IMG/VR virus record: IMGVR_UViG_3300031953_000001
DNA length: 64,000 nt
Reading direction: 5' to 3' (one strand)
DNA from: a virus
Taxonomy: Duplodnaviria; Caudoviricetes
How positions within the stretch are numbered: the first letter of the stretch is position 1; the number at the start of each line of letters is the position of its first letter. Positions 6,040-59,301 of the stretch are shown piece after piece. The notes below the pieces were generated by a model that saw only the letters and a program-made list of their open reading frames with translations, was not told the origin of the DNA and made no database searches. The translations under genes and the position numbers were made by a program.

Positions 6040-7569
6040 TTACAAGATGCCAAGTTGGGCATTGCTTGGGCGTTGGTTAACAGTCAAGTTAGACCCACCT
6101 GAGAAGGCACTGGCAGTCACAACGTTATCGACATTCCACATGGAGATGTTCTGACCGAACGTCGATGCACTAAAGAACATCGTAGCCATGTCCGTAACAC
6201 TAGACGTGTTCCAAGCATTTAGTGGTTGATTAAAGGCCCCTGCGGATCTGAACATGGAACTCATGTCAGTGACGTTCGACACGTTCCAGTTATTCAGCGG
6301 ACGGTTAAAAGTAATTGCATCAAAAAACATGGAGTCCATACTGGTCACGTTAATTGTGTTCCACGTGTTCAACGTGCCATTAAAGGCTGACGCGCCGCGG
6401 AACATGCGAACCATGTCAGTGACCTTGGAAACATTAAAGTGATCTATCGATTGGATAAACGAGATGGCAGTATTGAACATCTCCCTCATGGTTGTCACGT
6501 TGCCTGTATTCCACCCAGCTAACGAACCATTGAACACGCTGGCGCCGAGGAACATACGAGACATGTCCGTAACCGCACTCACATTCCAAGTGTTCAGGTG
6601 CCGGTTGAACGCGCTGGCGTTGTAGAACATGTTACTCGTGTTAAGACAGCTGCTCAGGTTCCAGTCGTTTACCGAGCCGTTGAAACTCAACGCATGTGAG
6701 AACATGTGTCTCGCGTCTACCACATTACTGACATTCCAAGTATTCAAGGCTTGATTGAAGGTACTGGCGTAAATGAACATCTGTTCCGTCTTAGTGACAC
6801 CACTCACATCCCATGAGTTCAGCGGTTGGTTGAAGACGGTGGCCTGGGCGAACATCGACGTCATATCAACGACGTTAGACACATCCCAATGGTTGATGTT
6901 GCTGTTGAAGTCACCGGCAGCCTGGAACATGCTAATGCAGCTTGCGCCCGGCAAGAAGGTCGGTTCGTCACTGGCACTGATCACAAACCCAGTACGATCA
7001 CGGAACATGCTCTCAGTAGACGCGAACGTGGCCACGCCCCACTGCATGACGTCTTTGATCTGTTTCCGGTTGGCGATCAACGATCTTGTGAAACCATTGA
7101 TCATACCGTGGACTTCTACGGTATATTGACCTGGCGCGGAGTAAGTGTGAGAGGCAGCGCCGGTATAAGACTGATACCCAGAGTTATCGCCCCAGTCAAT
7201 GGTGATGTCGGAGCCAGTCTCAAACGACAGGATGACGTTGGTGGCACCTACGGTGGTGGCTTCGGTATCCACCAACAGTTTCATACCTTGACCGAACATT
7301 TTACCGGTCGTGACGATAGTGGCGATGTCGCCGCGGACCAAGGCGTTCATCCGCCCTGGATTGGAGAACAACTGATCGTCGTTGGTGACGGCTGGGTCGT
7401 CTTGCTTAACCTGAGAGATGAGCTTCGCGTACTCATCGCCTTTGGCTTGTGCCGCAGCGCGAGTGGCATCTATGTCTACTTGAACCCCAGAGACGACGGC
7501 TGCCGTGTGGTTTTCAATGGCGGTGTTCAGTTCTAGGCGTTTTGCGTTTAAGTCGTTTAAATCGGCCAC
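6040..7569 (-). CDS. DUF285/BspA-type repeat protein, paralog A (N-terminal family module + PKD-like domain + 11 repeats)
   Basis: About 25-aa repeats FNxxLNxWNVSNVTDMxxMF; ITIDWGDN...HTYSAPGQYTVEV PKD-like motif; GTG start with AAAGGA upstream. Confidence 0.85.
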   Translation of the reverse strand: MADLNDLNAKRLELNTAIENHTAAVVSGVQVDIDATRAAAQAKGDEYAKLISQVKQDDPAVTNDDQLFSNPGRMNALVRGDIATIVTTGKMFGQGMKLLVDTEATTVGATNVILSFETGSDITIDWGDNSGYQSYTGAASHTYSAPGQYTVEVHGMINGFTRSLIANRKQIKDVMQWGVATFASTESMFRDRTGFVISASDEPTFLPGASCISMFQAAGDFNSNINHWDVSNVVDMTSMFAQATVFNQPLNSWDVSGVTKTEQMFIYASTFNQALNTWNVSNVVDARHMFSHALSFNGSVNDWNLSSCLNTSNMFYNASAFNRHLNTWNVSAVTDMSRMFLGASVFNGSLAGWNTGNVTTMREMFNTAISFIQSIDHFNVSKVTDMVRMFRGASAFNGTLNTWNTINVTSMDSMFFDAITFNRPLNNWNVSNVTDMSSMFRSAGAFNQPLNAWNTSSVTDMATMFFSASTFGQNISMWNVDNVVTASAFSGGSNLTVNQRPSNAQLGIL

Positions 7570-7630
7570 GTGGGTATCCTTTTAAGTAGGAGAATAAGAG
7601 GACAAGGTGTCCTCTGTATTTGGGCTAACG

Positions 7631-8455
7631 TTATTCGGTGGCCAAGGCACCGGCGGCTTCGATCGAGGCTTGCAATTGCTCGATCATGAACGTGTGGGTG
7701 GCGTAGAACTCTACCTCTTGAGCCATGACGAAACTGACCTTGGCCAACTCGGAAATGCTAACACCGGAGGCGGCGTAGGTCTCTGGGTCGGACTCCATAC
7801 GTTGCAGGAGCTTATCCAAATGCTCGCTGATCGTTTTCACCAAGTCCAGTACCGTCTTCCGCGGGACCCGAGCCAGACGTTCTACCAGATCGTTGTACTC
7901 ACTGGCAATTTTAGGCCATTCCGCTTGACGGGTGATCAGATCCCCGTACGGACGGCGTTCGGCACCATCGCGAGAGAAGTCTTTGGCGATCAAGTCGCGG
8001 ATCGACTCTATGTCGTGAGTAACCACCTTATCCACTATTTTGGATTCACGTTGGGACTGCAAAGTCGAGGGGTCGGTGAGTAGTACAGCTAAGTGCTTCT
8101 CAAACGGTTCAAGGGTCTCTTGAATCAACCCGTCTACAGCGTCCTGAGCCTTATTGAGCGTGCTTAAGTGTTTAAGGTACGTGGTAGCCAGGCCTTTGGG
8201 AACCATCACTGGGGTGCGTCTGAGCAGCATGTAGTTGGATTTCTTAGACAGCTGATAGTGTTTGCTTTCGTTCAGCAGGTCCAGCTCCACGTCAACGTCG
8301 CTCAGCGAGTTGGAAACGAACTCGGTGACTTTGCTGAAATACGCCGGAAGTTTCTGTCGGAGGTAGTCAAAAGAACCCCGAAACGACAGAGCCTCGGTAG
8401 TCAATTCCAGTGCTGCTTGTTCAAGAACGCCCAGGTCGATGGGTTGCTCAGACAT
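7631..8455 (-). CDS. conserved phiKZ-like hypothetical protein
   Basis: 274 aa helical ORF divergent from uvsX; GGAG upstream; TATG motif at 8494-8497 on the minus strand. Confidence 0.7.
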   Translation of the reverse strand: MSEQPIDLGVLEQAALELTTEALSFRGSFDYLRQKLPAYFSKVTEFVSNSLSDVDVELDLLNESKHYQLSKKSNYMLLRRTPVMVPKGLATTYLKHLSTLNKAQDAVDGLIQETLEPFEKHLAVLLTDPSTLQSQRESKIVDKVVTHDIESIRDLIAKDFSRDGAERRPYGDLITRQAEWPKIASEYNDLVERLARVPRKTVLDLVKTISEHLDKLLQRMESDPETYAASGVSISELAKVSFVMAQEVEFYATHTFMIEQLQASIEAAGALATE

Positions 8456-8586
8456 AAGTTACTCCGATTATACTCGAAAGGTTGGATACGGTTCATAAAA
8501 TTTAACGGTACTCGGCTATGGTTTGACCTGAAGCATCGCACTTAGCCGCGGTATCTACAACGAACATACCATTTTAGGAGTCTTAC

Positions 8587-10041
8587 ATGACAGGCTTTAC
8601 TCCTGCCCCACACATTCGCCCTCGGCCTTGCCTTGGTTCCCTGATGGACATTCCCGCAGGCCGTTACCACAAAGGTAAACTGGGCGATATGATTTTGAAT
8701 GGGGGATTCAGTAATTTCGTTGGCATTGGCGGACGAGGCAACACTTTCAAGACAGCATTAGGATTGTCCAACGCACTGACCGTCTTGGACCGATACACCA
8801 ACGCTGAGCTGGTGGTGTACGATGCAGAGATCACGTTTGCGTGGGACCGCATTGAAGACATGTGCGCACGGTATCGAAACATTGACTGGGCCGAAGCAGC
8901 CGATGCGGGACGTATCGTTCTGACGTCAGCGGCAGAGCACAGCGGCAATGCTTGGTGGCAGCTTATTCGGGATCAAGCCGAAGAGCGTGTTAAACAAATG
9001 AAGAAGATGAAGACCAACACGCCGTTCATCGATCGACAAGGCACTCCCATCAAAGCCTTCCCCCCGATGATCCATTTCCTGGACTCTATGAGTCAGCTGC
9101 AAACGGACGCCGTGGAAGAGATTTATAAGAAGCACGAAATCGACGCAGGTGCCGCCAACACCGACGCCCTTAGAGGGGCGGCGATCAAGACGCGTCTGGT
9201 CATGCAAGTTCCTCAAGTCACGTCGGGTGCGGGCATGACGCTGATTGCCACCGCCCACGTGGGCGATGAGATGAAGCTGGACCCTTACGCCCCCGCCAAG
9301 CAACAGTTGGCGTTCTTGAAGAAAGGCTTGAAGTTTAAGAACTGCCCGGAGAAGTTTACCTTCTTGACCTCAAACTGCTGGGTCGTCTCTGATGCCTCGC
9401 CGTTGTTGAACAAGAGCACCAAGTCGCCTGAGTACCCACTGCCGGGTATGAACGATGCGGTAGGCGATACCGATCTACAAGAGCTGACGGTCATTAACGT
9501 GCGCTCCAAGTCAGGACCCACAGGACACACCTTTAAACTGATCATCTCTCAAACCGAAGGACTGCTCTCAAGTCTGAGTGAGTTCCACTACCTTAAGTCT
9601 AGGAAAGACAAGTTCGGACTGGAAGGTCCTGAGGGCGTGACTAAAGACTATCGATTGATCCTGTACCCAGAGCCAATTCTTAAACGGACTAAGGTGCGCG
9701 ACACCATCGATGAGCTCCCACGTCTGCGACGGGCTTTGGAAATCACGTCGGAACTAGGCCAGATCTATGACTACTGGCCGGATTTCCCAAGAGACGATGT
9801 GGTGCAGCCAAAAGCGCTGTACGACAAATTAACGGCACAAGGATACGATTGGGACGTGTTGTTGGACACCCGTGGGTATTGGACGTTCGACCATTACGAA
9901 AACGAAGTCCACCCACTGTCCACCATGGACCTGATCAACATGTATCATGAGCGGTACATCCCGTTCTGGTACCCCGACAAAGACAAATTGAAAGTCACAC
10001 TAAAACCAAATGGTGATACCGATGGCGAGATCAACGCGTGA
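8587..10041 (+). CDS. uvsX: UvsX/RecA-like recombinase (phiKZ gp152-like)
   Basis: P-loop GIGGRGNTFKT, YDAE, HFLDSMS, LIATAHV; AGGAG upstream; position between RNase H and the virion RNAP beta-C gene. Confidence 0.85.
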   Translation: MTGFTPAPHIRPRPCLGSLMDIPAGRYHKGKLGDMILNGGFSNFVGIGGRGNTFKTALGLSNALTVLDRYTNAELVVYDAEITFAWDRIEDMCARYRNIDWAEAADAGRIVLTSAAEHSGNAWWQLIRDQAEERVKQMKKMKTNTPFIDRQGTPIKAFPPMIHFLDSMSQLQTDAVEEIYKKHEIDAGAANTDALRGAAIKTRLVMQVPQVTSGAGMTLIATAHVGDEMKLDPYAPAKQQLAFLKKGLKFKNCPEKFTFLTSNCWVVSDASPLLNKSTKSPEYPLPGMNDAVGDTDLQELTVINVRSKSGPTGHTFKLIISQTEGLLSSLSEFHYLKSRKDKFGLEGPEGVTKDYRLILYPEPILKRTKVRDTIDELPRLRRALEITSELGQIYDYWPDFPRDDVVQPKALYDKLTAQGYDWDVLLDTRGYWTFDHYENEVHPLSTMDLINMYHERYIPFWYPDKDKLKVTLKPNGDTDGEINA

Positions 10042-10360
10042 TCTAGCGGCAGAGTTGTTTGCTCTGCTGGGTTCACGCTCACCCGATCATGCGGAGCGTT
10101 GGAAAGCGCTCTTCATCAACCGACACCCGTGGTGGACAACTGGTCCACTGCCGGATGTAAGCATTCAGATTCGTGAGATCAATGAGTTTTGGCGTGTGCA
10201 GTTAGGTATGCTCCTGGGAGACACCTTGCACGCTCGGAGTTGCATTGTAGACAACCTGGAGCCAGATGTGTGGCTGGGTAACTTCAAACGTTACGTCATG
10301 GAGGCTGTATTATACGAACCATTACCCAACCAGCGGTGGCAAGGACATTGCTGCGCGTAA
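10010..10360 (+). CDS. hypothetical protein
   Basis: ORF overlapping the uvsX 3' end and the next gene. Confidence 0.55.
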   Translation: MVIPMARSTRDLAAELFALLGSRSPDHAERWKALFINRHPWWTTGPLPDVSIQIREINEFWRVQLGMLLGDTLHARSCIVDNLEPDVWLGNFKRYVMEAVLYEPLPNQRWQGHCCA

Positions 10361-10767
10361 TCGTGGCGGGTTCACGGACGGTGAAGGATTATCTTTACGT
10401 TCGTGATCGCCTCTTAACGTTTGTGCGAGATCATCCGGATTGTGAGATTGTGTGGGTGAGCGGTATGGCCGCCGAAGGTCCCGATGACATGGCGTATCAC
10501 TTCGCGCGCTGGGACATGCCCGGTCAGTGGGTTGAGATGGCCGCGGATTGGGATTCTTACGGCAAAAGCGCAGGCTACATCCGCAACGCCGAAATGGCTA
10601 AGTTGGCCGATGAACTGCTGTTGTTCTGGGACGGGCGCTCTAACGGCTCCCGCCACATGCGTGAGACCATGAACAAACAAGGTAAGCCGGTTACCACTCA
10701 CGTGCTGGACGTAACCACGTCTGAAGGCGACTTTGAGATCTTCGACTTTAGGACCATTGCCCTGTAA
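10336..10767 (+). CDS. SLOG superfamily protein (DUF2493/YspA-like)
   Basis: RVIVAGSR, SGMAAEGPD, W..YGKSAGYIRNAEM, LLLFWDGRSNGSRHM. Confidence 0.8.
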   Translation: MARTLLRVIVAGSRTVKDYLYVRDRLLTFVRDHPDCEIVWVSGMAAEGPDDMAYHFARWDMPGQWVEMAADWDSYGKSAGYIRNAEMAKLADELLLFWDGRSNGSRHMRETMNKQGKPVTTHVLDVTTSEGDFEIFDFRTIAL

Positions 10768-10879
10768 CTGTCCGAGTTCGCTCGGGTGGTTGCAGGGCCT
10801 TATGGCGTCTGTGATGATCGTTATCCTATGTCAGTTTCCATGCACACACGCCACGGCCAGCGACCTAGGGTAAAGTTAT

Positions 10880-11959
10880 ATGAGCACTATATCAGATCTT
10901 AATATCAAACGCGATGAGTTGAACGCAGCCATCAACGACTACAAGCAAGCGGTCGGCGACTTTGCCGCCAGCACCATCACACAGCAAGCCTTGAATGATG
11001 CTAAAGCGTTGGCTATTTTAACGGGTGATGAGTATGCTAAGCTGATCTCTCAAGTCAAGCAAGACGATCCCAACGTGACCAACGACGATCAGCTGTTCAG
11101 TCGTCCGTCGGCGATGAACGCCCTGGTAAGAGACGACGTGGCGGTCATCCTGACCACCGGGTCATTCTTTGGGTCTGGCCTGAAGCTTTTAATCGACACC
11201 GAAGCCACCACCGTCGGGGCCACCAACGTTGTCCTGCCTTTCGCCGTAGGCAGTGATGTCACCATCGAGTGGGGAGACGCAACCGCGCGTCAGTCGTTCA
11301 CAGGCGCCGCCAGCCACAACTACGCCACGCCTGGGCAGTATGAAATTCAGATCATCGGTACGGTGAATGGGTTTACCGCCCCAGCAGTGATCGATCGTCG
11401 TACCATCAAAGATGTTCTACAGTGGGGAAATGTTGAGTTTCAGTCCACAGAGCTTATGTTCCGCGACCGTACGGGCTTTGTGATCTCAGCTTCGGATTTC
11501 CCACGCTTCCTACCCGGCGCCTTCATGCGAGCGATGTTTGAGAACGCCAGTGACTTCAATAGCAACATCGAACACTGGGACACGAGTAACGTAGTGGACA
11601 TGATGAGGGTATTTAAAGGAAATACCGTGTTCAACCAACCGTTGAATGCATGGGAGGTGGGTAACGTTATTAACATGGATGAAATGTTTCGGCTGGCTCT
11701 CGCGTTCAATCAAAACATCAACGACTGGGACGTCGGTAAGGTTGAGCGGATGAGACTGATGTTTATGGACACGGATTCCTACAGTCAAGGCATGTCCCGT
11801 TGGAACACAGAATCGGCCGTTGAGATGACCGGCATGTTCCGTAACGCGGGTGTGTTTAACGAGAATCTGTCTTCGTGGAATGTGAGTAACGTCCTTTACT
11901 ACACTCAGTTCAGCGATGGTACTCCTATGTTTACATCGAATTTACCTAACTTCCAATAA
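10880..11959 (+). CDS. DUF285/BspA-type repeat protein, paralog B (5 repeats)
   Basis: Same N-terminal module (GDEYAKLISQVKQDDP.VTNDDQLFS), PKD-like domain and repeats; TATG at 10827-10830. Confidence 0.85.
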   Translation: MSTISDLNIKRDELNAAINDYKQAVGDFAASTITQQALNDAKALAILTGDEYAKLISQVKQDDPNVTNDDQLFSRPSAMNALVRDDVAVILTTGSFFGSGLKLLIDTEATTVGATNVVLPFAVGSDVTIEWGDATARQSFTGAASHNYATPGQYEIQIIGTVNGFTAPAVIDRRTIKDVLQWGNVEFQSTELMFRDRTGFVISASDFPRFLPGAFMRAMFENASDFNSNIEHWDTSNVVDMMRVFKGNTVFNQPLNAWEVGNVINMDEMFRLALAFNQNINDWDVGKVERMRLMFMDTDSYSQGMSRWNTESAVEMTGMFRNAGVFNENLSSWNVSNVLYYTQFSDGTPMFTSNLPNFQ

Positions 11960-11960
11960 C

Positions 11961-11998
11961 CGAATAAGAGGAGGCCCAAAGGCCTCCTCTGTTTGTTT
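11961..11998 (+). terminator. intrinsic terminator
   Basis: agaggaggcc-caaa-ggcctcctct followed by gtttgttt. Confidence 0.8.
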
Positions 11999-12035
11999 CA
12001 TCCATTAAGAATACGCAACTAGGAAATCGATCGTC

Positions 12036-13193
12036 ATGGCGACTTTACAAGACTTAGACTTAAAGCGGGTTGAACTCAACAGCGCGATTAACGATTACAA
12101 GCAAGCGGTGGTGGATTTCAGAAACGCCACAAACACCCAAGGTGACGTAGACGCCGCTAAAGCCTTAGCCGTCACCAAAGGCGATGAGTACGCTAAGCTG
12201 ATCTCTCAAGTCAAGCAAGACGATCCCAACGTGACCAACGATGATCAGCTGTTCAGCCGCCCTGCGGCCATGAACGCCTTGGTGCGGGACGATGTGGCGA
12301 CCATCGTTCGTACCGGACGCCTGTTTGGCGACGGCATGAAGCTTTTAATCGACACCGAAGGCAACGCGGCTAACGCCACCAACGTCATCCTGTCCTTTGC
12401 CACAGGCAGTGCGATTGATGTGGATTGGGGCGATGGCAGCAACATTCAGGCGTTTACAGGTGCAGCCAGCCACAATTACGCCATTCCAGGACAGTACACT
12501 GTCGAGGTTCACGGCACCGTCAACGGTTTCACCTCACCGCTGGTGGAGAGTCGTCAACAACTTAAGGATGTGATGCAGTGGGGTGAGCTGGAATTTGCCA
12601 ATGCGAACCTCATGTTCCGATCTCGCACTGGGTTTGTGATCAGCGCAGCCGATGGTCCGACCTTCTTACCCGGATGTTCGTGCACGACTATGTTTTATGG
12701 GGCATCTGACTTTAACTCAAACATCAATCATTGGGATGTGAGCAACGTTGTCGATATGGCCTCAATGTTCGCCTCAACCGACGCTTTCAATCAACCCTTG
12801 AATTTGTGGAATGTGGGTAACGTTGTCAATATGGCCTCAATGTTCTACTATGCCAGCTTATTCAATCAGCCCTTGAACAGCTGGAACGTGTCGAAAGTAA
12901 CGAATTTCGCATCCATGTTCAGAGACGCCGCGGCCTTTAATCAGCCGTTGAGTCCTTGGGTCGTTTCTTCAGCAGTAGACATGAGGGCCATGTTTATGTA
13001 CGCCAGCGCCTTCAATCAGAATCTGGGCCCCTGGAATGTGAGTAATGTCATCACCCTGTTCCGCATGTTCTACAAAGCCACGGTGTTCAACAAGAACATC
13101 GCCGCTTGGAACGTGAGTAGCGTTACAGATACTAATAGTTACAATGATTTTGCGTATCTATCGAGTTTGGCCGGTAGCAACTCGCCGTTTTAA
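12036..13193 (+). CDS. DUF285/BspA-type repeat protein, paralog C (6 repeats)
   Basis: Same architecture as paralogs A, B and D. Confidence 0.85.
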   Translation: MATLQDLDLKRVELNSAINDYKQAVVDFRNATNTQGDVDAAKALAVTKGDEYAKLISQVKQDDPNVTNDDQLFSRPAAMNALVRDDVATIVRTGRLFGDGMKLLIDTEGNAANATNVILSFATGSAIDVDWGDGSNIQAFTGAASHNYAIPGQYTVEVHGTVNGFTSPLVESRQQLKDVMQWGELEFANANLMFRSRTGFVISAADGPTFLPGCSCTTMFYGASDFNSNINHWDVSNVVDMASMFASTDAFNQPLNLWNVGNVVNMASMFYYASLFNQPLNSWNVSKVTNFASMFRDAAAFNQPLSPWVVSSAVDMRAMFMYASAFNQNLGPWNVSNVITLFRMFYKATVFNKNIAAWNVSSVTDTNSYNDFAYLSSLAGSNSPF

Positions 13194-13220
13194 CGCATAA
13201 CGACGGGACATTCAGCCACG

Positions 13221-13249
13221 AGGGAGACCTTCGGGTCTCCCTTTATTTT
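13221..13249 (+). terminator. intrinsic terminator
   Basis: agggagacc-ttcg-ggtctccct followed by ttatttt. Confidence 0.85.
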
Positions 13250-13298
13250 GCAATCACTATGACCCATAGGGTGAGACTAACCGTTACGGGAGAGCACT

Positions 13299-13967
13299 AT
13301 GAATGCGGCGCGTAAAGAAGCCACCGACTACGCGATTAAATTGCTCAGTAAATTCGCCGGTAAGAACGAATCGGTTGCCGAGATGCAAACGATGTTGGAC
13401 GCTTTAAGCGATGAGCGGTTTGATGCGTACATGCAACAACTGGCCAGTGGGGATGAGGTCTTGTCCTACATAGTGCCGAACCTGGGTACAGTGCGATTGA
13501 GTGTGGATACGAACCTGAAGATTGCGGAAGAACTGAAGCACGAGTTCTTTGAGCGCTTGTGGTTGACCGATCCCGCCACAGGTCAGACCTATCTTACCCC
13601 AGAGAAATATCTGATCATCGATTTGCCGTTGAAACGTTTGGCGCAGCATCTGCACAAGAAGATCTCGATTCCCGAAGACAACACCCACATCGACGAACTG
13701 ACCGGGCAAGCCACAGGCAACTCCAAAGGCAGCGGCTTGTCGTTCCCAGAGTTGCAGATCATGTACTCTCACGGACTAGAGAACGCCATACGTGAGTTGT
13801 TCAAGTTTCGGGGGGGTGATACTGAGGCCTACAAATCGCTAACCCGAGAGATCCTCTCCGGCGGCCTGCCCAGTATGGACGCGGTTGACACGGGTGAAAC
13901 TCGAGCCCGTTCCACAGACGTATTGCAAATTCTGTTGAAGTCCGCGCACCTCGACAACAATCTGTAA
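13299..13967 (+). CDS. virion RNA polymerase beta subunit, C-terminal part (phiKZ gp149 / SPN3US gp218-like)
   Basis: LAQHLHKKISIP..IDELTGQATGNSKGSGLSFPE aligns by eye with RpoB [37 protein letters not shown]. Confidence 0.8.
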   Translation: MNAARKEATDYAIKLLSKFAGKNESVAEMQTMLDALSDERFDAYMQQLASGDEVLSYIVPNLGTVRLSVDTNLKIAEELKHEFFERLWLTDPATGQTYLTPEKYLIIDLPLKRLAQHLHKKISIPEDNTHIDELTGQATGNSKGSGLSFPELQIMYSHGLENAIRELFKFRGGDTEAYKSLTREILSGGLPSMDAVDTGETRARSTDVLQILLKSAHLDNNL

Positions 13968-14002
13968 TACTACAATAACGATAAAGATCTAGGAGCAGTA
14001 CC

Positions 14003-14596
14003 GTGCTTAATATTCCACAAATCAACCACATTAAGACCACCGCTAAAGAACTGTTTGTGCAGTCCTACCTGACCCCCATTCATCTTCGCAGTAGCTCTGA
14101 GATGATGGTCACTAATCCGGAGTTGGTAGAAGCCATCATGTCCGTGGTGGGCGATGCAGGTATGATCTACCTGTCTGTCTGGGAAAACGTCAGTGGGCTT
14201 TGGGCCAAGTTTCGGGAACAGGATGACGCTGGGGTGTGTCAGTGGTTGCTGCAGGCCGCCACGACGTTTCGAATCTTAGCCTTCACCAATGGAAACGAGT
14301 ATCAGAATTGGGTTGAACATCTGGTGTCCAGCTATTGCTCGCACGCAGTAGCGTCGGGTAGCGTAGGACAGTCCAGTCAGAAAGAGCTGGAAGAAGCCGT
14401 GGCCATTGACGATGAGTACGCCGATCGTATTCCTCGGGCAACAGAGTACCGTGCGTTGATGTACGCCAATCCTTGGTTTGTGTACTTGGCGTCGTTGCAG
14501 TTGAGTTACCATGAAATCTATTCTGAAATACTCACCTCCCAGTTCACCGATGACTTGAAGTCACAACTGACCGGTTCACGAGGAGTTCCCCAATGA
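14003..14596 (+). CDS. hypothetical protein
   Basis: GTG start with AGGAG; coupled to the next ORF by an ATGA overlap. Confidence 0.7.
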   Translation: MLNIPQINHIKTTAKELFVQSYLTPIHLRSSSEMMVTNPELVEAIMSVVGDAGMIYLSVWENVSGLWAKFREQDDAGVCQWLLQAATTFRILAFTNGNEYQNWVEHLVSSYCSHAVASGSVGQSSQKELEEAVAIDDEYADRIPRATEYRALMYANPWFVYLASLQLSYHEIYSEILTSQFTDDLKSQLTGSRGVPQ

Positions 14597-15686: not shown

Positions 15687-15723
15687 CGGCATAAGGGGAG
15701 GCCACTGGCCTCCCCGTTATGCT
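15687..15723. terminator. bidirectional terminator
   Basis: cggcataa-ggggaggcc-act-ggcctcccc-gttatgc between convergent genes. Confidence 0.8.
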
Positions 15724-15770
15724 CCCTGCCGTTGCTGTAACAGTTTACATAGGACAGCGATCTTATAGCA

Positions 15771-49451: not shown

Positions 49452-49453
49452 TC

Positions 49454-50831: not shown

Positions 50832-52959
50832 TTGGCGAAAATACCCTCGGGCGATTATCGATAGCAAAACACCAAACACCACCTTTTTGCGCTTGGCCTC
50901 GGTCTATCGCGCTATGGGTGTGGATCATTATTACTTTCACTTGGCGTTACTTCAACCTGAGCTTCAGGGGATAGACCCTCACAATGAAGACGCGTTGACG
51001 CTTGAGCAGAAAGCCATGATTTTGTACGAGTGCGATAACAACCCTTGGTATTACCTGAGGGAGATCGTGCTCGATAAAGGCGCAGGTTTGGAAATCGACG
51101 ACTGTCGCTTTCGAGCCAATCGCTCTAACATTGCGGCTATGTGGTTGTTGCTGTCGTGTGTTGACTACATTCAAATACAACCACGGCAGACCGGTAAGTC
51201 CTTTGGTACCGACTGCAACTCTTTGTGGTTGATGTATTTTTGTTATCGCAACACGGCACTGAACCTGATCACTAAAGATGAGTCTTTGCGCAAATCCAAC
51301 ATCGCTCGGTTGAAGAAACTCCGGGATATGTGGCCAGACTTCATTAACCGCAATACGTCCAAAGACGACAACAACCAGATCTCCTTGTCGTGCAACATGT
51401 TGGAGAACAAATACTACACCCACGTCTCCCAAAGTTCTGAGAAAGCCGCGAACAATCTGGGTCGGGGGATGACCAGTCCGTTTATCCACGTGGATGAGGG
51501 TCCGTTCATCAACCACATAGAGACCACGGTCAGCGCGGCTATGGGTTCGACCAACATGGCGCGGGAGATTGCCAAGCGCAAAGGCAAGCCGTATTGCACA
51601 GTGTTCACCACCACAGCCGGCAACCAAGAAGACCGGGATGGGCGTTACGTCTTTAACATGATGGCAGGGTCGGCAATCTGGACCGAGCGTTTCTTTGACT
51701 GTGTGAACCGAGAGGAGCTGGTGGGTTACATCAAAACCAACTCCGATGGGCGGGCCACCATGGTGAACCTGACCATGTCGCATCGTCAGTTGGGGTTGTC
51801 CGATCAGTGGTTGTACGAGGCCTTGGCCAACGCGCGCTCGGAAAGCGACAACATCGACCGAGATTACTTCAACCGTTGGACCAACAGCTCATCGACCTCC
51901 TTGATTCCAGAACACCTAGCTAAGGCCATGCGGCAATCGGAGAAAGAACCCGTCAGCAGTTGGATCTCCTCGGAGAATTACATCTTTCGCTGGTACACCG
52001 AAGTCGATGCGAGTCGCCATTACGTGTTGGTGGTGGATACCTCCGATGCGATCGGACGAGACGACATTGGTGTGGTGTTGTTGGATTCGCACACAGGCGC
52101 TGTGGCCGGTGCCGCGGCGTTCAACGAGACCAACCTCATTCGGTTTGCCCAGTGGTTGAAAGAGTTCTTGTTGAAGTATCGCAACAGCACCATGGTGATC
52201 GAGCGACGTTACAACGCACAAACCATCATCGACTACCTATTGTTAAAACTGCCAGAAGCGGGGGAAGACCCCTTTAAGCGGCTGTTTAACCAAGTGGTGC
52301 AAAAACGCGAAGAGCGGCAGAAGGATTTTGATCGGGTCATGGGTCCTGGTCTTAACCGCCCTAGAAACATGTACGATCAATACCGTCGAGACTTCGGGTT
52401 TGTGACCGATTCGGAAAGTCGGAAGTTGTTGTACTCCAACGTGTTGATGAACGCGGCTAAAGATGCAGGGGACCGTGTCAACGACAAGCAGTTGATTCAA
52501 CAGGTGCTGTCTTTGGTCATTAAGAACAACCGGATAGACCACACCTCCGGTGGACACGATGACATGGTCATTGCGTGGTTGATTGGGCATTGGTTCTTAA
52601 ACCACGGCATCAATCTGGCGGCCTATGGGTTGAACCCAGCAAGCGTCATGACCGACCGGGCTCGAGGGGGTAAAGAACTCACTCCCACGGAGGAGTATGA
52701 GCATCAAGAGCAAAAGGCATTAATGAGTCACATTGAATCCATCCATGAGCAGTTGAAGGTGGTCAGTGGACGAATGGACATTCTTAGACTAGAGGGGGAG
52801 ATGACCGCAGCCATGTCTCGACTTAAGAGCGACGATTCAGACGGTGTGACTTTGGATGCTCTTTTACAAGAAGCCAAGGACACCCGCGATCGACGTTTGT
52901 ATGGGCGCCAAGGTGCCCCTAATCGAACTCGGATGCTGTTGGAACGTTATGGACGTTAA
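50812..52959 (+). CDS. terL: terminase large subunit (phiKZ gp25-like)
   Basis: Walker A QPRQTGKS, Walker B IHVDEGPFI, TTTAG, nuclease VVDTSDA and GHDDMVIAW; TTG start. Confidence 0.92.
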   Translation: MIIFKSSWRKYPRAIIDSKTPNTTFLRLASVYRAMGVDHYYFHLALLQPELQGIDPHNEDALTLEQKAMILYECDNNPWYYLREIVLDKGAGLEIDDCRFRANRSNIAAMWLLLSCVDYIQIQPRQTGKSFGTDCNSLWLMYFCYRNTALNLITKDESLRKSNIARLKKLRDMWPDFINRNTSKDDNNQISLSCNMLENKYYTHVSQSSEKAANNLGRGMTSPFIHVDEGPFINHIETTVSAAMGSTNMAREIAKRKGKPYCTVFTTTAGNQEDRDGRYVFNMMAGSAIWTERFFDCVNREELVGYIKTNSDGRATMVNLTMSHRQLGLSDQWLYEALANARSESDNIDRDYFNRWTNSSSTSLIPEHLAKAMRQSEKEPVSSWISSENYIFRWYTEVDASRHYVLVVDTSDAIGRDDIGVVLLDSHTGAVAGAAAFNETNLIRFAQWLKEFLLKYRNSTMVIERRYNAQTIIDYLLLKLPEAGEDPFKRLFNQVVQKREERQKDFDRVMGPGLNRPRNMYDQYRRDFGFVTDSESRKLLYSNVLMNAAKDAGDRVNDKQLIQQVLSLVIKNNRIDHTSGGHDDMVIAWLIGHWFLNHGINLAAYGLNPASVMTDRARGGKELTPTEEYEHQEQKALMSHIESIHEQLKVVSGRMDILRLEGEMTAAMSRLKSDDSDGVTLDALLQEAKDTRDRRLYGRQGAPNRTRMLLERYGR

Positions 52960-53374
52960 TGTTTGGAGACTTAAAGGTAAGAGCCACTGCCGTCGGTGGT
53001 GGTCGTTGTGGTTGAGGCGACTTGCTACGACGATGTCCAGTACCGTGTGGACCGATCACTACCGCCGGCCAGGAAGTACGGTAGGGGCACCTTACCCATT
53101 ACACGTGGAAGTGCAGTGCGTTCAGCTCAATTACGAGTTTGGCAAACAGATGGGACTTCGGTTGGCAGTGAAGATGACAGCACTGATCGTCATTGAACAC
53201 TACCTTACTGAGGATCTACGTCCACGTCAGTCAATCAACCGATACTACGGCCTCACTCGGTCTCAATTACTCAAGGTGTTGCGTCACGAGTTGCCGTGGG
53301 TGGATGGGTTGCCTAATGGCGCGGCAGGCGAAGACCGTCAGTACGATCGCCGCCCTCCTAGAGATGTTGCTTAA
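52949..53374 (+). CDS. hypothetical protein
   Basis: ORF filling the gap between terL and the HDOD gene; start uncertain. Confidence 0.4.
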   Translation: MDVNVWRLKGKSHCRRWWSLWLRRLATTMSSTVWTDHYRRPGSTVGAPYPLHVEVQCVQLNYEFGKQMGLRLAVKMTALIVIEHYLTEDLRPRQSINRYYGLTRSQLLKVLRHELPWVDGLPNGAAGEDRQYDRRPPRDVA

Positions 53375-53406
53375 TTCAATCCATCAGTACGTTAAAGGAA
53401 TACCGA

Positions 53407-54840
53407 ATGAGTCGTTTCACATCGTTCTTTAAACCCAAGCGACTTTCAAAACAAGTCGCCGAAACGATCGCCCCTCCAACGCGAGCTCCAATCGACGTTC
53501 CGCTACCTTTAAGACGGTACTTTGAGGCATCGACCTACATCCCAGTGTATTTAAGCGACGACGTCTTACACCCGGTGGTGAAGATGGTGCAACTCACGTG
53601 TGAGGACGGTCCCGGGCAGGTGGTGTTTCGAGAAGACAGTTTGTTGGATCTGGATTTGCTCCAGAGACACAGTGGCAAACGGTTTCATCGCATGGATCGG
53701 AGTCAGTATCGTCAGGTGTTGGGTGAGGTGGGGGTGAACCTGATCCCACCCATGCCAAGACTGACCTGTGCCTGTACCTGGGTAGACTACAGAGTCGATG
53801 ACTTAGATAGCGCTTTGGTGGATCTTACAGGGCAACGAGAGTACGCGGTGGTTTCTAAAGTCATGTTGATGGATTGGCTGAAAGATAACCCTAGGGTAGA
53901 TATCGCCATGTCCATGTTACAATTGAACTCTGATGACGGCTCTATACAAAACGACACCGATTGCATCAACGGGGCGATTCGTAAACTGACCAAGCTGCGC
54001 ATAGAACGGCGCCTGGTGGACACTTTGGAATTGCCTCCGTTGCCCGACATCGCTCGTCGATTGATCGAGTTACGCAGCAACCCTCAAGGCAACCTCATGG
54101 ATCTGGTGGAGGCGATTGAAAGCGATCCTATTCTATCAGCGAACGTGCTTCGTTGGGCTAACTCGTCACTCTATGCGACGACAGTCAAGGTCGAGTCCGT
54201 AACCGACGCTGTGGGACGAGTGTTAGGGTATGACATGACCATGAACTTAATGATGGGTCTGGTGTTAGGTCGAGTGATGGACGTCCCTGACCATACCCCT
54301 ACGCATGTGTTGGGGTTTTGGGAACAGTCGATCTGGGTGGCACACGGCGCGCGCGCGGTGAGTAAACTCTTACCCTCAGACCGTCACGTCCCGCACGGCT
54401 TGGCGTATTTAACCGGGTTGTTGCATAATTTTGGGTACTTGATTCTTAACCACGCGTTTCCACCGCATTTCCGTTTGATCACCGAGTCAACTGACATCAA
54501 CCGACACATAGACGTCAGTTTGGTGGATGCGCACATCCTAGGCATCACTCGAGAGCAGATAGGTGCGGAGTTGTTGCGCAACTGGATGATCGGTGAGGAT
54601 GTGGTGACTGGGGTACGTTATCACAAGCGTATTGAGTACACACATGAGGCGACTTACGCCAATCTGATTTACTTGACTCGGGGAGTGTTGATGAAACACG
54701 GGGTTCTGTTGGGGGCTAGATACACCGTTCCTCTGGCTTTATATACTTACTTAGGTCTATCGCCTGAAGCCGTAGACGATTGCATAGTGGCTTTGTTGGA
54801 ACACAAAGACGAGATTTTAGGTATGGCACATCGGGTGTGA
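53407..54840 (+). CDS. YbaK-like + HDOD domain protein, SadB-like
   Basis: HDOD motifs LPPLP, IESDPILSANVLRWANSSLY, FWEQS, AYLTGLLHNFGYLIL, ILGITREQIGAELL..W; N-terminal region resembles the YbaK-like part of Pseudomonas SadB (recall); 477 aa. Confidence 0.8.
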   Translation: MSRFTSFFKPKRLSKQVAETIAPPTRAPIDVPLPLRRYFEASTYIPVYLSDDVLHPVVKMVQLTCEDGPGQVVFREDSLLDLDLLQRHSGKRFHRMDRSQYRQVLGEVGVNLIPPMPRLTCACTWVDYRVDDLDSALVDLTGQREYAVVSKVMLMDWLKDNPRVDIAMSMLQLNSDDGSIQNDTDCINGAIRKLTKLRIERRLVDTLELPPLPDIARRLIELRSNPQGNLMDLVEAIESDPILSANVLRWANSSLYATTVKVESVTDAVGRVLGYDMTMNLMMGLVLGRVMDVPDHTPTHVLGFWEQSIWVAHGARAVSKLLPSDRHVPHGLAYLTGLLHNFGYLILNHAFPPHFRLITESTDINRHIDVSLVDAHILGITREQIGAELLRNWMIGEDVVTGVRYHKRIEYTHEATYANLIYLTRGVLMKHGVLLGARYTVPLALYTYLGLSPEAVDDCIVALLEHKDEILGMAHRV

Positions 54841-54877
54841 CGGCATAGGGGAGGGCTTTCGCCCTCCCCATATGCTG
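54841..54877. terminator. bidirectional terminator
   Basis: cggcata-ggggagggc-tttc-gccctcccc-a-tatgctg between convergent genes. Confidence 0.85.
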
Positions 54878-54889
54878 TCTGTGAGCGCC

Positions 54890-56164
54890 TTAGAAGACGC
54901 TGGAGACAAGTTCATCCGCACGTGACTCCATGGCTCCCCCTTGACTGTAGTAGCTCATGGTGAAGGTCCTAAGGACGATGTAGATCATACATCCCGTTCT
55001 AACAGACGCCAGCAACGATTTGTTGTTTGACCTGACCGCCCGCTTGGTGATGGCCAACGACAAATCACGCATCTTCATCAAGGCCGGATCACTGGAACGT
55101 GACGACATGTACAAACTGCGCAACCGAGAGATCAACACCGACAGATTGATGCTGTTACGAAACACCTGACGATTCTCGCTCATGAACTCAAATGCATGAA
55201 TCAAGGTCTCATCGATCAACTCGCCAATCTTTGGATCACCTCGGCGACCGTAGTTGTCGGCCATGTACTCCAAGGCCGTTATTAGGTGTCGATCGGGCAG
55301 GGTGTGCATGACGTCAGAGACGATCTTCACCAGCTCCGGACGAATGAAGGTCTGACGGTCACTCAGGGCGCTGTGGATGTACCGTTTGAACTGGCTGCTT
55401 TTGCGCGACAGATCACGGACGTGCATCTGACCGTCCAAGTCAATCAACGATGAGCGAGTCTGTACCCGAGAAGAGCTCTTCTTCACCTCGTAAAAGACGT
55501 GTACCATCTTTTTCACGATTTCCCGAATCCGACCTTGGACGTCGGTGAGCACGTAGAGGATGTCCTTGTCGTTGTCGTAGCGTGCAATGGTGTTGGCGTG
55601 TATTGAGTTACGGGATAAGATGTCTTCGCAACGCGCGGTGATCAAGGCTGTCCAGCTGCCTTTTTGTTTCAGTGCAAACTTGTAACTCAAAGCTGCGTAA
55701 GTGGCCTCGACTATCGAGCGATCGGGCTCGTATGGGAAGTTGTGTGCCATCAATGAACTCAAGTACCGGTAATGCAGAATCCTTAGAGTGTCCATCATCC
55801 CCTGCTCCCGTTGTCGGGCAGACAGGGAGCTGCTGGTCATCAACGCGTGCAACATCCACACAATCGAGTGGGAGAACACATCGCTCTGCACGTTTCGTTC
55901 AGGGTGGATGCTTGGCAGCGAGTGCAACTCGGTCTTCAGAGCCACGTCGTCAACTTGCATGATCTCATCGAACCACAGGTTCCGCTCGGAGTTGTGGAAT
56001 CGTAACGCTGGGGTTCCTAAAAGGTTGCCGCCTAAGAAGGCGATGTGGTTTTCGTTTTTGTTCACGAAGTGGCGTTCAAACTGACTGATGGTCTTCACAA
56101 GCTTGAGATCGATCTTCAGGTGTTTCATCTCTTGCTCGAAAACCTCACGGATGGTACTTGCCAT
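54890..56164 (-). CDS. conserved virion protein (phiKZ gp32 / SPN3US gp262-like by position)
   Basis: 424 aa; FLGGNLLG, LK..GSW, YYSQ motifs; lies after the terminase as in SPN3US-like phages (recall). Confidence 0.6.
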   Translation of the reverse strand: MASTIREVFEQEMKHLKIDLKLVKTISQFERHFVNKNENHIAFLGGNLLGTPALRFHNSERNLWFDEIMQVDDVALKTELHSLPSIHPERNVQSDVFSHSIVWMLHALMTSSSLSARQREQGMMDTLRILHYRYLSSLMAHNFPYEPDRSIVEATYAALSYKFALKQKGSWTALITARCEDILSRNSIHANTIARYDNDKDILYVLTDVQGRIREIVKKMVHVFYEVKKSSSRVQTRSSLIDLDGQMHVRDLSRKSSQFKRYIHSALSDRQTFIRPELVKIVSDVMHTLPDRHLITALEYMADNYGRRGDPKIGELIDETLIHAFEFMSENRQVFRNSINLSVLISRLRSLYMSSRSSDPALMKMRDLSLAITKRAVRSNNKSLLASVRTGCMIYIVLRTFTMSYYSQGGAMESRADELVSSVF

Positions 56165-56399
56165 ACGGGGCCTCGTCTCTGGGTTTGTTGTCTATATGAT
56201 CGGGCGTCAACGGCCCCGCGGGGGGACCGGCCAGCTGATCCCCTTGTGAGGGTATCAAAGGTATCACGGGGGGGTGTAGATCTTTGGTCTGTTCTGTATG
56301 GGTTGTTTCTTCTGTGATCGATGCATCCGTTCTGTTACCCTCATCCATACAAAAACCCAACTCATCTATTATTCTTTACAGGACGGATTTATTATTTGC

Positions 56400-56807
56400 T
56401 AGAAAGAGGAGCGTAAGCGACCAGCCTTTCGAGCCCTACGTTTACGTAGGGCGTAGGTGGCAACGTAGTAAGGAGGGGTAGCGATAGTGTGCGTCTACGC
56501 AATATGGGGTTATTGCTAAAGCGTGCACCACGACCCCAAGTTCCTCCTATGGTATAGCGCGTTAAGCGCGCTCGTGCTTAAGGTTATCGTTGGGGTAACG
56601 GGTTTGCGATGACCTTAAGTGTGCTGGTGTCCAGAGAACCCTTTGTTGAATAAACACAAGTTTGTACGGGTTACTTGTGTTTGGGTAAATTACGGCGGTT
56701 ACAGGTTGTGTTTGCCTTGCGTTGGTTCGCGATGGCCGTTACCTACGGGGTTCTCTGGACGGGGCTTAGTAAGTCGCATGAGGAGGCTCAGGCCTCCTCT
56801 TATGCCG
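56400..56807 (+). ncRNA. candidate structured non-coding RNA
   Basis: At least seven helices of 6-13 bp in an ORF-poor region, with G.U pairs that work only on the + strand; ends in a terminator-like hairpin. Boundaries uncertain. Confidence 0.5.
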
Positions 56808-56877
56808 ATTCCAACAAAAGACAGACCTATATAACAAAGGTGAGTTACCCATACGAACCTTTAGAAGGAAGTCCATT

Positions 56878-57057
56878 ATGTCGTTTATAAAGAGCGTTGC
56901 TATAAGTGTTGCTGTGAGTGTTTCTGTCAATGGCGCGTTCGCCGTTGGCCGTAAGCTGAAGACTAAGTACGATCAGCGCAACAAGAAGACCACCGCAACA
57001 CACACCCCCAAACCAGACACCACTACCGATGAGTACGCCAAAGAACGTACACGTTAA
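56878..57057 (+). CDS. small 59-aa protein with hydrophobic N-terminus (below the ORF-track cutoff)
   Basis: AGAAGGA before the ATG; MSFIKSVAISVAVSVSVNGAFAVGRKLKTKYDQRNKK...; its stop abuts the RBS of the next gene. Confidence 0.65.
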   Translation: MSFIKSVAISVAVSVSVNGAFAVGRKLKTKYDQRNKKTTATHTPKPDTTTDEYAKERTR

Positions 57058-57067
57058 GGACAAGACC

Positions 57068-57370
57068 ATGCACGAACTGACGTTGACTAACCTACCGGCC
57101 TACGTTGAACGCGAAGCTCAGCTGGTGACTGTGATGTTTTCCTTGGCGTCGGTGGCGACTCAGTTTGCGTCGGCGGTGGCCCCTAAGCGCATCGACGTCT
57201 GGATCGCCGACACGATACTGGATGTCAATGCGTACGCCAACAGCGTCTTACCCATAGGCCCTGTAGAAGCCACAGATTACTATCTGGTACTGGCCACCAC
57301 CGAAGAGACTTACAGTTACGTCCTCCTTCCCCGGGGGCAGTTGATCCAAAGCGTTCCAAGTTTAAGCTAA
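57068..57370 (+). CDS. hypothetical protein
   Basis: AAGGA before the ATG at 57068. Confidence 0.6.
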   Translation: MHELTLTNLPAYVEREAQLVTVMFSLASVATQFASAVAPKRIDVWIADTILDVNAYANSVLPIGPVEATDYYLVLATTEETYSYVLLPRGQLIQSVPSLS

Positions 57371-57418
57371 ACCCGACGATCTTTACTCCACGAACCCCAC
57401 TACCTTTAGGATTCTATT

Positions 57419-57997
57419 ATGTCTACCGTAACCCTACCTTCGTTTAACAACCTTCTAGGATTCGATTTCACCACTCCCAAGGTCCTCGTCTTAGACGGTA
57501 TTCGGTTCCGCACGGGAATATTTGACGATCATGCAAAAGTAAAGCAACGCATCTATAGCCTAATGGCGTTGTTGTCAGACGACGATGTTAAACTGATGCG
57601 CGAGTCGGGCATTGAGTTCTTGATTCATGACAGCTTCACCAAAGCCAAACACCATGGAGACGTTTCCGCTCACTACGCACAGTCAACGATCGTCCTTACG
57701 ATTGACCCCAAATTTATCGCTCTCGAAGCGATGTTTAAGGGCAAACGGCGCGCCGCCGCCATAAGCGCTCAGATTGAGGTATTGGTGAACCTGGATCTGT
57801 ACACCAAAGAAGCGATCGACTCCCCAACCAGGAACAAGCTGCTGCTTGAATCCGTCGCAACGGCGTACTTGAAACACGGCCTCATCACCAACAAAGAGAA
57901 GTTTATCGCCGCCCGCACCATCAGCGTCAATGTGATGGGGTGTATTGAAAGCGGTGTAAAGCTTGCCGGATCAGTTGTGAGTTTCTTCCGCAAGTAG
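57419..57997 (+). CDS. hypothetical protein
   Basis: TAGGA upstream; followed by a terminator at 57998-58036. Confidence 0.7.
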   Translation: MSTVTLPSFNNLLGFDFTTPKVLVLDGIRFRTGIFDDHAKVKQRIYSLMALLSDDDVKLMRESGIEFLIHDSFTKAKHHGDVSAHYAQSTIVLTIDPKFIALEAMFKGKRRAAAISAQIEVLVNLDLYTKEAIDSPTRNKLLLESVATAYLKHGLITNKEKFIAARTISVNVMGCIESGVKLAGSVVSFFRK

Positions 57998-58089
57998 CGG
58001 CATAGGGGAGGGGCATTCGCCCCTCCTCTTATTTTTTGTCTTAATCCTATGTCCCCACCGGACATTCCACCATTAGGACATAATTACCC

Positions 58090-59301
58090 ATGGCAACTTT
58101 ACAAGACCTTCAGACCAAACGTGACGAGCTTAACTCAGCGATCGTGGCTTACACTCAGGCGGTACAAGCCGGCGTTCAGATCGACATAACCACCACCAAA
58201 GCCGCAGCTCAAGCCAAAGGCGATGAATACGCCAAGTTAATCTCTCAGGTTAAGCAAGACGACCCAGCCGTCACCAACGACGATCAGCTGTTCAGCCGCC
58301 CTGCGGCCATGAACGCCTTAGCACGTCAAGATGTGGCAACGATTATGACGACAGGCCGAATGTTCGGCGCTGGCATGAAGTTACTCGTTGACACCGAAGG
58401 CAATGCATCAGGTGCTACTAATGTGATCTTGTCGTTTGCCGCCGGTAGCGACGTCACCATCGATTGGGGTGACGGTACTGGCTATCAGGCGTACACTGGA
58501 GCTGCATCTCACAACTACGCGACTCCAGGTCAGTACACCGTGGAAGTCCACGGCACCGTCAACGGTTTCACCACCGCACTAAGTGAAAACCGTCAACAGA
58601 TCAAAGACGTCATGCAATGGGGTTTGTTAGAGTTTGCTTCTACTGCCATGATGTTTCAACAACGCCTTGGGTTTGTGATCAGCGCTTCCGATGGGCCGAC
58701 GATCTTACCAGGCGCCAGTTGCGCTCAGATGTTCTACAACGCTAATGATTTCAACAGCAACATCGACCATTGGGACATGGGCAACGTCGTTAACATGTAC
58801 TACATGTTTAGTTTCGCCACGAACTTCAACCAACCACTCAACGGTTGGAACGTCAGCAACGTCACTGACATGGCCGGGATGTTCTTTAACACACTCGGGT
58901 TCAATCGACCGATCGGTAACTGGGACGTCAGCAACGTCACTGACATGTCTCGCATGTTCTACAAAGCCAACGCCTTCAACCAAGCTCTGAACGCCTGGAA
59001 CGTCGGTAGTGTTACTAACATGTTATTCATGTTCAGAGACGCCACGAACTTCAACCAACCACTCAACGGTTGGAACGTCAGCAACGTCACTGTCATGAGC
59101 GATATGTTCAATCAAGCCGACGCTTTCAATCAACCGTTGTACTTGTGGGATGTAAGTAGTGTTACTAGCATGCCATATATGTTCGCCAACGCTGACTCCT
59201 TCAACCAAAACCTCAGTGGTTGGAATGTGAGTCAAGTGACTTCGTACACCGGGTTTAATGTTAACAGCGCATTGGTCGCTGGTAACGTACCTAACTTCTA
59301 A
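58090..59301 (+). CDS. DUF285/BspA-type repeat protein, paralog D (7 repeats)
   Basis: Same N-terminal module, PKD-like domain and repeats; TATG at 58048-58051; terminators on both sides. Confidence 0.85.
   Translation: MATLQDLQTKRDELNSAIVAYTQAVQAGVQIDITTTKAAAQAKGDEYAKLISQVKQDDPAVTNDDQLFSRPAAMNALARQDVATIMTTGRMFGAGMKLLVDTEGNASGATNVILSFAAGSDVTIDWGDGTGYQAYTGAASHNYATPGQYTVEVHGTVNGFTTALSENRQQIKDVMQWGLLEFASTAMMFQQRLGFVISASDGPTILPGASCAQMFYNANDFNSNIDHWDMGNVVNMYYMFSFATNFNQPLNGWNVSNVTDMAGMFFNTLGFNRPIGNWDVSNVTDMSRMFYKANAFNQALNAWNVGSVTNMLFMFRDATNFNQPLNGWNVSNVTVMSDMFNQADAFNQPLYLWDVSSVTSMPYMFANADSFNQNLSGWNVSQVTSYTGFNVNSALVAGNVPNF

Follow-up and report, generated by a model that had tools for sequence, protein, structure and literature searches.

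A family of jumbo-phage proteins that join a conserved helical N-terminal module to exchangeable heads: candidate accessory virion adhesins

The stretch of DNA analyzed in this study (64,000 nt, hereafter the window) belongs to the IMG/VR virus record IMGVR_UViG_3300031953_000001 and carries four paralogous genes, designated A, B, C and D. Their products consist of an N-terminal module of about 90 residues (N-module), an immunoglobulin (Ig)-like domain and an array of DUF285 repeats (Table 1). Searches of the genome for further copies, in which D or a profile built from the first 100 residues served as the query, revealed three more long members (E, F and G) and two open reading frames (ORFs; s1 and s2) that encode the N-module alone. 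The family of four described in the original prediction is real as far as the window genes are concerned, but its size was understated, since the whole genome holds seven full-length and two anchor-only members. We favor, with moderate confidence, the interpretation that the seven long proteins are accessory adhesins of the virion that share a docking module; their presence in the virion, docking site, ligands and late timing are what we infer from the analyses presented below.

According to this interpretation, the three-helix N-module would be the common attachment piece, which either binds one conserved site on the particle or bundles with the modules of other paralogs. A flexible hinge and the Ig-like sandwich would act as a spacer, and the DUF285 solenoid (5 to 11 repeats, with six hypervariable positions in each) would offer a paralog-specific surface to a ligand of the host envelope. 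Each gene would form its own late transcription unit placed between core genes, and related phages would gain, lose and re-head such units.

The window corresponds to the reverse strand of positions 14133–78132 within a complete viral contig of 222,493 bp with direct terminal repeats. The genome includes genes for a PhuZ tubulin, for RNA polymerase subunits and a major capsid protein of the phiKZ type, and for homologs of phiKZ gp130 and gp131; judging by this gene content, the uncultured source phage belongs to the nucleus-forming, phiKZ-like jumbo phages (chimallivirus-like).

ORF calling confirmed the four predicted genes, and in a full-length alignment of their products identity to A ranged from 55 to 63%. 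The nearly invariant block that had been noticed in their N-terminal parts is also real: the sequence GDEYAKLISQVKQDDP[A/N]VTNDDQLFS.P..MNAL is invariant in the A–D alignment. The repeats were assigned to DUF285 (PF03382) with scores of 147–307 bits (E 3e-43 to 8e-93), compared to the Pfam gathering score of 25 bits, and all 18 DUF285 stretches found genome-wide are located within the seven long members. The predicted numbers of repeats (11, 5, 6 and 7 for A, B, C and D, respectively) were reproduced, with a period of exactly 25 aa; this exact spacing applies to all 48 repeats that were parsed. Calculation of the entropy of the parsed repeats also agreed with the proposed division into fixed scaffold and variable residues. 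The fixed positions are F1, N2, L5, W8, V10, V13, M16, M19, F20 and A23 (F1, N2, W8, V13 and F20 with entropy ≤0.8 bits), and positions 7, 17, 18, 21, 22 and 24 are hypervariable (entropy >3.3 bits, near random). D contains an exact 43-nt duplicate (positions 58824–58866 and 59049–59091), the copies of which lie 225 nt, i.e. three repeat units, apart. Since all seven repeats of D are in a 75-nt register, recombination could add or remove three repeats without disturbing the reading frame.

As predicted, a signal peptide is absent from A–D: the longest apolar run within the first 40 residues is 4, five or six of the first 20 residues are charged, and the N-terminus is predicted to form an amphipathic helix. 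Neither the signal peptide nor the lipobox of secreted BspA-type bacterial surface proteins was found in the N-termini of these four proteins. The status of the predicted PKD-like domain is intermediate. A confident β-sandwich was obtained by AlphaFold2 modeling (residues 96–157), but the best Pfam scores for PKD (PF00801 and PF18911; 13–22 bits) are below the gathering thresholds (23.5 and 27, respectively), and the label Ig/PKD-like describes the fold only.

The AlphaFold2 model of D, generated with an 18-row family alignment, has a mean predicted local distance difference test (pLDDT) value of 91. It is composed of a helical hairpin (residues 4–57), a loop (58–75), a further helix (76–88), a hinge (88–91; pLDDT <50), the β-sandwich and the solenoid, which contains a single short strand per 25 residues. 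The loop is modeled with lower confidence and coincides with the most conserved sequence. Comparison of the solenoid with the PDB using Foldseek produced only weak matches to leucine-rich repeat (LRR) ectodomains (best E 4.5e-3), among them a fusion of LGR4 with a hagfish variable lymphocyte receptor (4qxe). Among predicted viral structures (BFVD), numerous “BspA/DUF285” proteins were matched, which come from jumbo phages and from AaV, a giant virus. Together with the 110 phage records that match DUF285, this result shows the premise of the original prediction, that such repeats are mostly known from bacteria, to be outdated. Structure matches in the atlas to the N-module were generic helical bundles. 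Prediction of an N-module homotrimer (three copies, 32-row alignment) gave a score of 0.01, with a fold pLDDT of only about 50, and carries no weight either way as to oligomerization.

The N-module has no match in Pfam, PDB sequences or PHROGs, and a tblastn search of 50,697 deposited phage genomes (E up to 10) yielded three matches only, all at chance level (E ≥3). Against 1.84 billion representative proteins, the profile detected 33 N-module matches, with about 25 convincing clusters, and a single-sequence scan of viral contigs retrieved only two contigs, both of one related phage. The N-module-bearing contigs that were inspected are chimallivirus-like, and the helical module appears, from these searches, to be restricted to a small clade of uncultured phages. 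Some long proteins (765–1427 aa) match only profile positions 4–54, in 5–8 repeated stretches, which is probably a coiled-coil-like similarity and not homology. The modules fall into two loop subtypes, “DDPxVTNDDQLFS” (A–G) and “K(D/A)NPxxxxxD(F/L)FS” (s1, s2 and many metagenomic relatives), which may correspond to two docking specificities.

In the metagenomic relatives, the N-module ends at the same point (...TG, approximately residue 90) before unrelated domains. Four types of head were distinguished: (i) the Ig-like + DUF285 cassette, (ii) a domain of about 190 residues predicted to adopt a ConA-like jelly roll (model pLDDT only 67), with VIA Z values of 15–18 to GH16 glucanases, PL7 lyases and lectins (approximately 180 residues aligned, root-mean-square deviation about 3 Å), (iii) LamG (PF13385, E 7e-8) and (iv) a β-propeller with TM values of 0.76–0.82 to LVIVD/DUF6923 propellers. 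Several short proteins consist of the N-module without any head. Phage proteins that bind receptors or carbohydrates typically have ConA-like, LamG, propeller or LRR-type heads, and a constant front with exchangeable back ends corresponds, by analogy, to the usual design of phage receptor-binding proteins. The combination that defines this class of adhesins, a conserved attachment part with exchangeable distal domains, is seen in the predicted N-module fusions of different phages. The original prediction of a constant docking-type module carrying a variable head is thus supported at the level of architecture by the fixed hinge, at least four unrelated heads, selection on the core of the module (see below) and homology to gp161 of phage Goslar.

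This homology was detected by BLASTP, which aligned residues 86–403 of D to residues 266–480 of Goslar gp161 (E 1e-15), including the IDWGDG motif. The N-terminus of gp161 is a DUF7941 domain (E 1e-24). Ten DUF7941 proteins, among them gp161, are reported to be virion-associated on the basis of mass spectrometry, gp22 forms filaments, and the DUF7941 family was placed at the peripheral baseplate (bioRxiv 10.64898/2026.04.21.720040). Like the family described here, the Goslar proteins form a chimallivirus multi-gene family with a common N-terminal module, to which carbohydrate-binding, glycosidase or LRR heads are attached; however, DUF7941 is globular (about 190–270 residues) and forms head-to-tail filaments, whereas the module found here is an unrelated helical domain of about 90 residues. 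Homology of the N-module to DUF7941 was rejected, since PF25613 gave no match in A–D at E up to 0.1 (control, Goslar gp161, E 1e-24). The genome examined contains a single DUF7941 gene (genome positions 140555–141361; 281-aa frame, E 1e-30), which is headless, compared to ten in Goslar.

A second comparable system is known from phiKZ, in which the N-terminal segments of gp131, gp133, gp134 and gp135 were fitted as a hetero-hexameric helical bundle under gp130, with gp132 as a short paralog (Nat Commun 2026, PMC13250141). These proteins resemble the present family in having a common N-terminal attachment region, differing C-termini (a β-propeller in gp131) and a short member. They differ in that their N-regions are unrelated to those described here, and in that the phiKZ genes are arranged in tandem in the tail module, while the members of the present family are scattered. 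A gp131-type N-domain was rejected as an explanation of the N-module (hhalign probability of 0.6% against phiKZ gp131–135 and the local gp131 homolog). The parallel raises the possibility, which partly overlaps with the favored interpretation, that the N-modules bundle with each other into mixed fibers similar to the phiKZ six-helix bundle, and that the core is invariant since all paralogs must fit together. The helical N-termini, the short members and the propeller-headed relative do recall the gp131 set. We nevertheless regard such bundling as rather improbable, given that the N-module has no sequence relation to gp131-type N-domains, and that the phage encodes separate gp130 and gp131 homologs of its own, so that a different family already occupies this attachment system. 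Because the N-module is unrelated to both the DUF7941 and gp131 anchors, it seems to represent a third, independent anchor system that follows the same logic.

The repeat-containing part of the proteins has a wider distribution. DUF285/PARCEL/“BspA-like” proteins of Mollicutes, Listeria, jumbo phages and AaV share the 25–26-residue repeats and the FN..L..W.V..V..M..MF scaffold, and many large viruses have several copies of them. Unlike the family analyzed here, the members from bacteria possess a signal peptide or a lipoprotein anchor. Two DUF285 proteins are present in purified AaV particles, and in Citrobacter phage Tr1 the gene annotated “tail assembly protein” is immediately followed by one for a 351-aa protein that consists of the Ig-like + DUF285 cassette. 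A further parallel is provided by T4 Hoc, a non-essential Ig-like decoration protein of the virion surface with a separate attachment part, for which a role in weak adhesion has been proposed. Hoc differs in that it attaches to the capsid via its C-terminal part and has no LRR-type head.

The divergence of the seven paralogs was considered. The proportion of synonymous differences (pS) is 0.65–0.78 in every region, i.e. near saturation, and the duplicates are therefore old. Within the 35-residue core of the N-module, pS is 0.66 and the ratio of non-synonymous to synonymous differences (pN/pS) is 0.20, with third-position identity only slightly raised. Since synonymous sites are near saturation and non-synonymous differences are few, the core is held by its function through strong purifying selection on the protein, in the manner that an interface for a common partner would be. 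The explanation of the invariant block by recent gene conversion was largely rejected (pS in the block of 0.66). Exact runs of 48–50 nt are common to the pairs A–D and B–C within the block, which shows that some local gene conversion has occurred. No positive selection was detected at the variable positions, although the test is weak as synonymous sites are half saturated: pN/pS nowhere exceeds 1, and the hypervariable positions have the highest value in the protein (0.61).

Comparison with a related phage, pieced together from several metagenome and IMG/VR contigs on the assumption that these represent one phage (core proteins approximately 52–79% identical), provided information on the stability of the repertoire. 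Five members with the same core block are present in its IMG/VR contig (62% complete), and three in a separate metagenome contig. In four ortholog pairs the numbers of repeats are identical, and the hypervariable positions are 30–81% identical, compared to 13% between paralogs. As the orthologs keep both repeat number and hypervariable residues, each paralog has its own conserved surface, and the family constitutes a fixed set of specificities and not a diversifying one. The likeness to diversifying constant/variable LRR receptors, suggested in the original prediction, is not borne out by these data: the paralogs are ancient, their surfaces are conserved and no pN/pS value exceeds 1. Variable lymphocyte receptors do share the fixed solenoid scaffold with variable solvent-facing positions, but the phage family has neither a diversification mechanism nor any sign of ongoing diversification.

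One contig of the relative (L015) contains two extra members, L015:1808–2869 (−) and L015:9770–10999 (+), at sites that are empty in the genome studied here. One of them is propeller-headed and lies just upstream of the ortholog of G. The other is inserted between core genes that are adjacent in this genome, and is a headed protein with the “KxNP...DFFSN” anchor subtype, which is here confined to the headless s1 and s2. Because L015 holds two members without a counterpart in this genome, members of the family are gained and lost as single-gene units.

The genomic neighborhoods of the nine members are diverse. A adjoins a UvsX-like recombinase gene, B and C precede an RNA polymerase subunit gene, D is flanked by PhuZ on one side and by a conserved gene of unknown function on the other, and G adjoins the DNA polymerase gene. 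E adjoins the homologs of phiKZ gp130 (fiber platform; E 3e-49) and gp131, F is placed two genes ahead of the endolysin gene, s1 precedes a tail-fiber gene and s2 directly follows the major capsid gene. In genome coordinates, the gp130 homolog spans 87378–88661, the gp131 homolog 88734–91415, the tail-fiber gene 112210–114432 and the major capsid gene 148860–151022. Based on the parallels with Goslar and Tr1 and on the positions of E and s1, we lean, by analogy, towards a docking site at the tail periphery in preference to the capsid; the location of s2 beside the capsid gene points in the opposite direction. Constant linkage of the anchor-only gene with the capsid gene was rejected, as the short gene of another phage was found downstream of an SbcC-like gene, a neighbor that is unrelated to the capsid protein.

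The position of s2 also bears on an alternative that we consider quite unlikely, namely that the proteins travel inside the capsid and enter the host by ejection. In this case the N-module would act as a propeptide for targeting to the capsid, which the prohead protease might remove, and the LRR-like solenoids, once injected, would attach to proteins of the host, in line with the common protein-binding role of LRR-type folds. phiKZ-type prohead proteases cleave after S/A/G-x-E, and an invariant G-D-E (A-D-E in s2) is present within the core block. However, this tripeptide lies in the middle of predicted helix 2 (H30–57), which makes it a poor protease substrate, and S/A/G-x-E is expected several times per protein by chance. 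Furthermore, the alternative heads (lectin/glycanase-type jelly rolls, LamG and propeller) suit extracellular glycans, and the homologous Goslar cassette rides on a baseplate-filament module.

The scattered arrangement of the genes speaks for another alternative, in which the proteins are late, non-virion soluble binders that act in the cell or are released at lysis (e.g. masking receptors or binding envelope polymers or debris), with the N-module as an oligomerization or regulatory domain. Non-structural genes surround the members, which resemble separate moron units that have a terminator each, and their copy number and position differ between related phages, as is the case for accessory genes. 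This explanation was nonetheless judged unlikely, since (i) a strictly conserved module under different heads points to a common partner, (ii) the nearest characterized cassette (Goslar gp161) is virion-associated and two DUF285 proteins occur in AaV particles, and (iii) the proteins have no signal peptide or other export signal.

Several observations weigh against the favored interpretation of the long members as virion adhesins. The members are spread over regions of replication and transcription (with genes for DNA polymerase, UvsX-like recombinase, an RNA polymerase subunit and PhuZ) and not clustered in the tail module. No relative of the N-module could be detected among proteins the location of which is known, and in the phages compared the anchor-only genes have no conserved neighbor that would hint at the docking partner. 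Binding of proteins is frequent among LRR-like solenoids, which would also suit an intracellular role.

Table 1. Members of the N-module family, domains of D and predicted transcription signals. Positions refer to the window unless marked “genome”.
Feature	Position	Strand	Description	Evidence
Paralog A	6040–7569	−	509 aa, GTG start; N-module + Ig-like sandwich + 11 DUF285 repeats	ORF, alignment, Pfam, repeat parsing
Paralog B	10880–11959	+	359 aa; N-module + Ig-like sandwich + 5 DUF285 repeats	
Paralog C	12036–13193	+	385 aa; N-module + Ig-like sandwich + 6 DUF285 repeats; in tandem with B	
Paralog D	58090–59301	+	403 aa; N-module + Ig-like sandwich + 7 DUF285 repeats; member modeled	
N-module of D	58090–58356	+	residues 1–89	AlphaFold2 model; alignment of 32 modules
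Near-invariant core	58219–58323	+	35 residues (GDEYAKL...MNAL)	alignment, pN/pS
Ig/PKD-like β-sandwich of D	58375–58560	+	residues 96–157, motif IDWGDG	model; sub-threshold PKD matches; alignment to Goslar gp161 266–320
LRR-like DUF285 solenoid of D	58603–59298	+	cap begins near residue 172; the seven 25-aa repeats start at residue 221	
Member E	genome 86172–87326		full-length, outside the window	
Member F	genome 119451–120665		full-length, outside the window	
Member G	genome 197033–198172		full-length, outside the window	
s1	genome 111018–111299		N-module alone, 93 aa	
s2	genome 148437–148727		N-module alone, 96 aa	
CCTATG	58046–58051	+	42 nt upstream of D; context AATCCTATGTC, common to B and G (G outside the window)	
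CCTATG	10825–10830	+	53 nt upstream of B	
Terminator-like hairpin + T run	58004–58029	+	upstream of D	
Terminator-like hairpin + T run	59310–59331	+	downstream of D	
Terminator-like hairpin	11967–11990	+	between B and C	
Terminator-like hairpin	13220–13243	+	after C	
Terminator-like hairpin	5992–6016	−	after A, nearly identical to those after B and E	

Inspection of the upstream regions confirmed the predicted TATG motifs before B and D, both as CCTATG. A (GAT[CG][CG])TATG-type motif is present 24–53 nt upstream of five of the nine members (B, D, G, s2 and E). Similar GAT[CG][CG]TATG-like motifs occur 24–100 nt ahead of many genes of the phage, including those of the fiber cluster, and this sequence is a candidate late-promoter consensus. 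The core of the phiKZ late promoter is TATG, and by analogy the genes of the family would be expressed late. The terminator scan, which covered the surroundings of A–D, found the predicted terminators on both sides of D. The hairpins after A, B and E (for E, at about genome positions 87330–87365) have almost the same sequence, AGAGGAGGCC...GGCCTCCTCT, and either the terminator was duplicated with the unit or one type of terminator has been reused. Reading of the downstream sequences revealed a GC-rich inverted repeat within about 100 nt of the stop codon in all members except F.

DNA identical to this genome (zero differences) was recovered from brine and aquatic metagenome contigs of several studies. 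The phage is abundant in the brines, with contig depths of 100–600 in several metagenome runs. In the region of A–C, contigs of four brine runs are identical, the differences listed at positions 12072–12411 being due to cross-mapping of paralogs; since contigs drop rare variants, this identity is uninformative with respect to microdiversity. Window positions 5500–13500 are matched by runs of four different studies (years 2019, 2022 and 2024), again with differences caused by paralog cross-mapping only, and the phage population looks very uniform over time. RNA-library contigs cover A, B and C, but the neighboring genes are covered equally and DNA carry-over is possible, and these contigs were therefore not counted as evidence of transcription. 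In four independent public runs, all contigs break at the N-module block of A, B and C (positions 7390–7401, 11056–11065 and 12221–12365). Because the paralogous block fragments short-read assemblies, the copy number of the family in metagenomic phage genomes is probably underestimated.

Jumbo phages contain many unexplained paralog families, and their host recognition is only emerging through the phiKZ and Goslar structures of 2026. The design described here is known from the Goslar DUF7941 proteins and the phiKZ gp131 paralogs; the compact anchor domain defined in this study and its clade-restricted family are absent from the libraries searched, and the domain is described in none of the databases searched. 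A more far-reaching idea, which we put forward tentatively and hold to be possible though doubtful, is that the N-module is a new plug, by means of which a small clade of nucleus-forming phages mounts LRR-like, lectin-like and propeller heads on one site of the particle, with anchor-only proteins competing for this site and thereby setting the number and kind of heads per virion. If true, this would be a tunable, combinatorial display, distinct from DUF7941 filaments and gp131 fibers, both types of which are encoded by the same phage. Should the docking site be found, the module could account for a broadening or change of host binding in uncultured phages of brines, and could provide a small natural tag for placing foreign binding domains on jumbo-phage particles. 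The results also correct the view of such repeat families as rapidly diversifying, since the paralogs are old and individually conserved.

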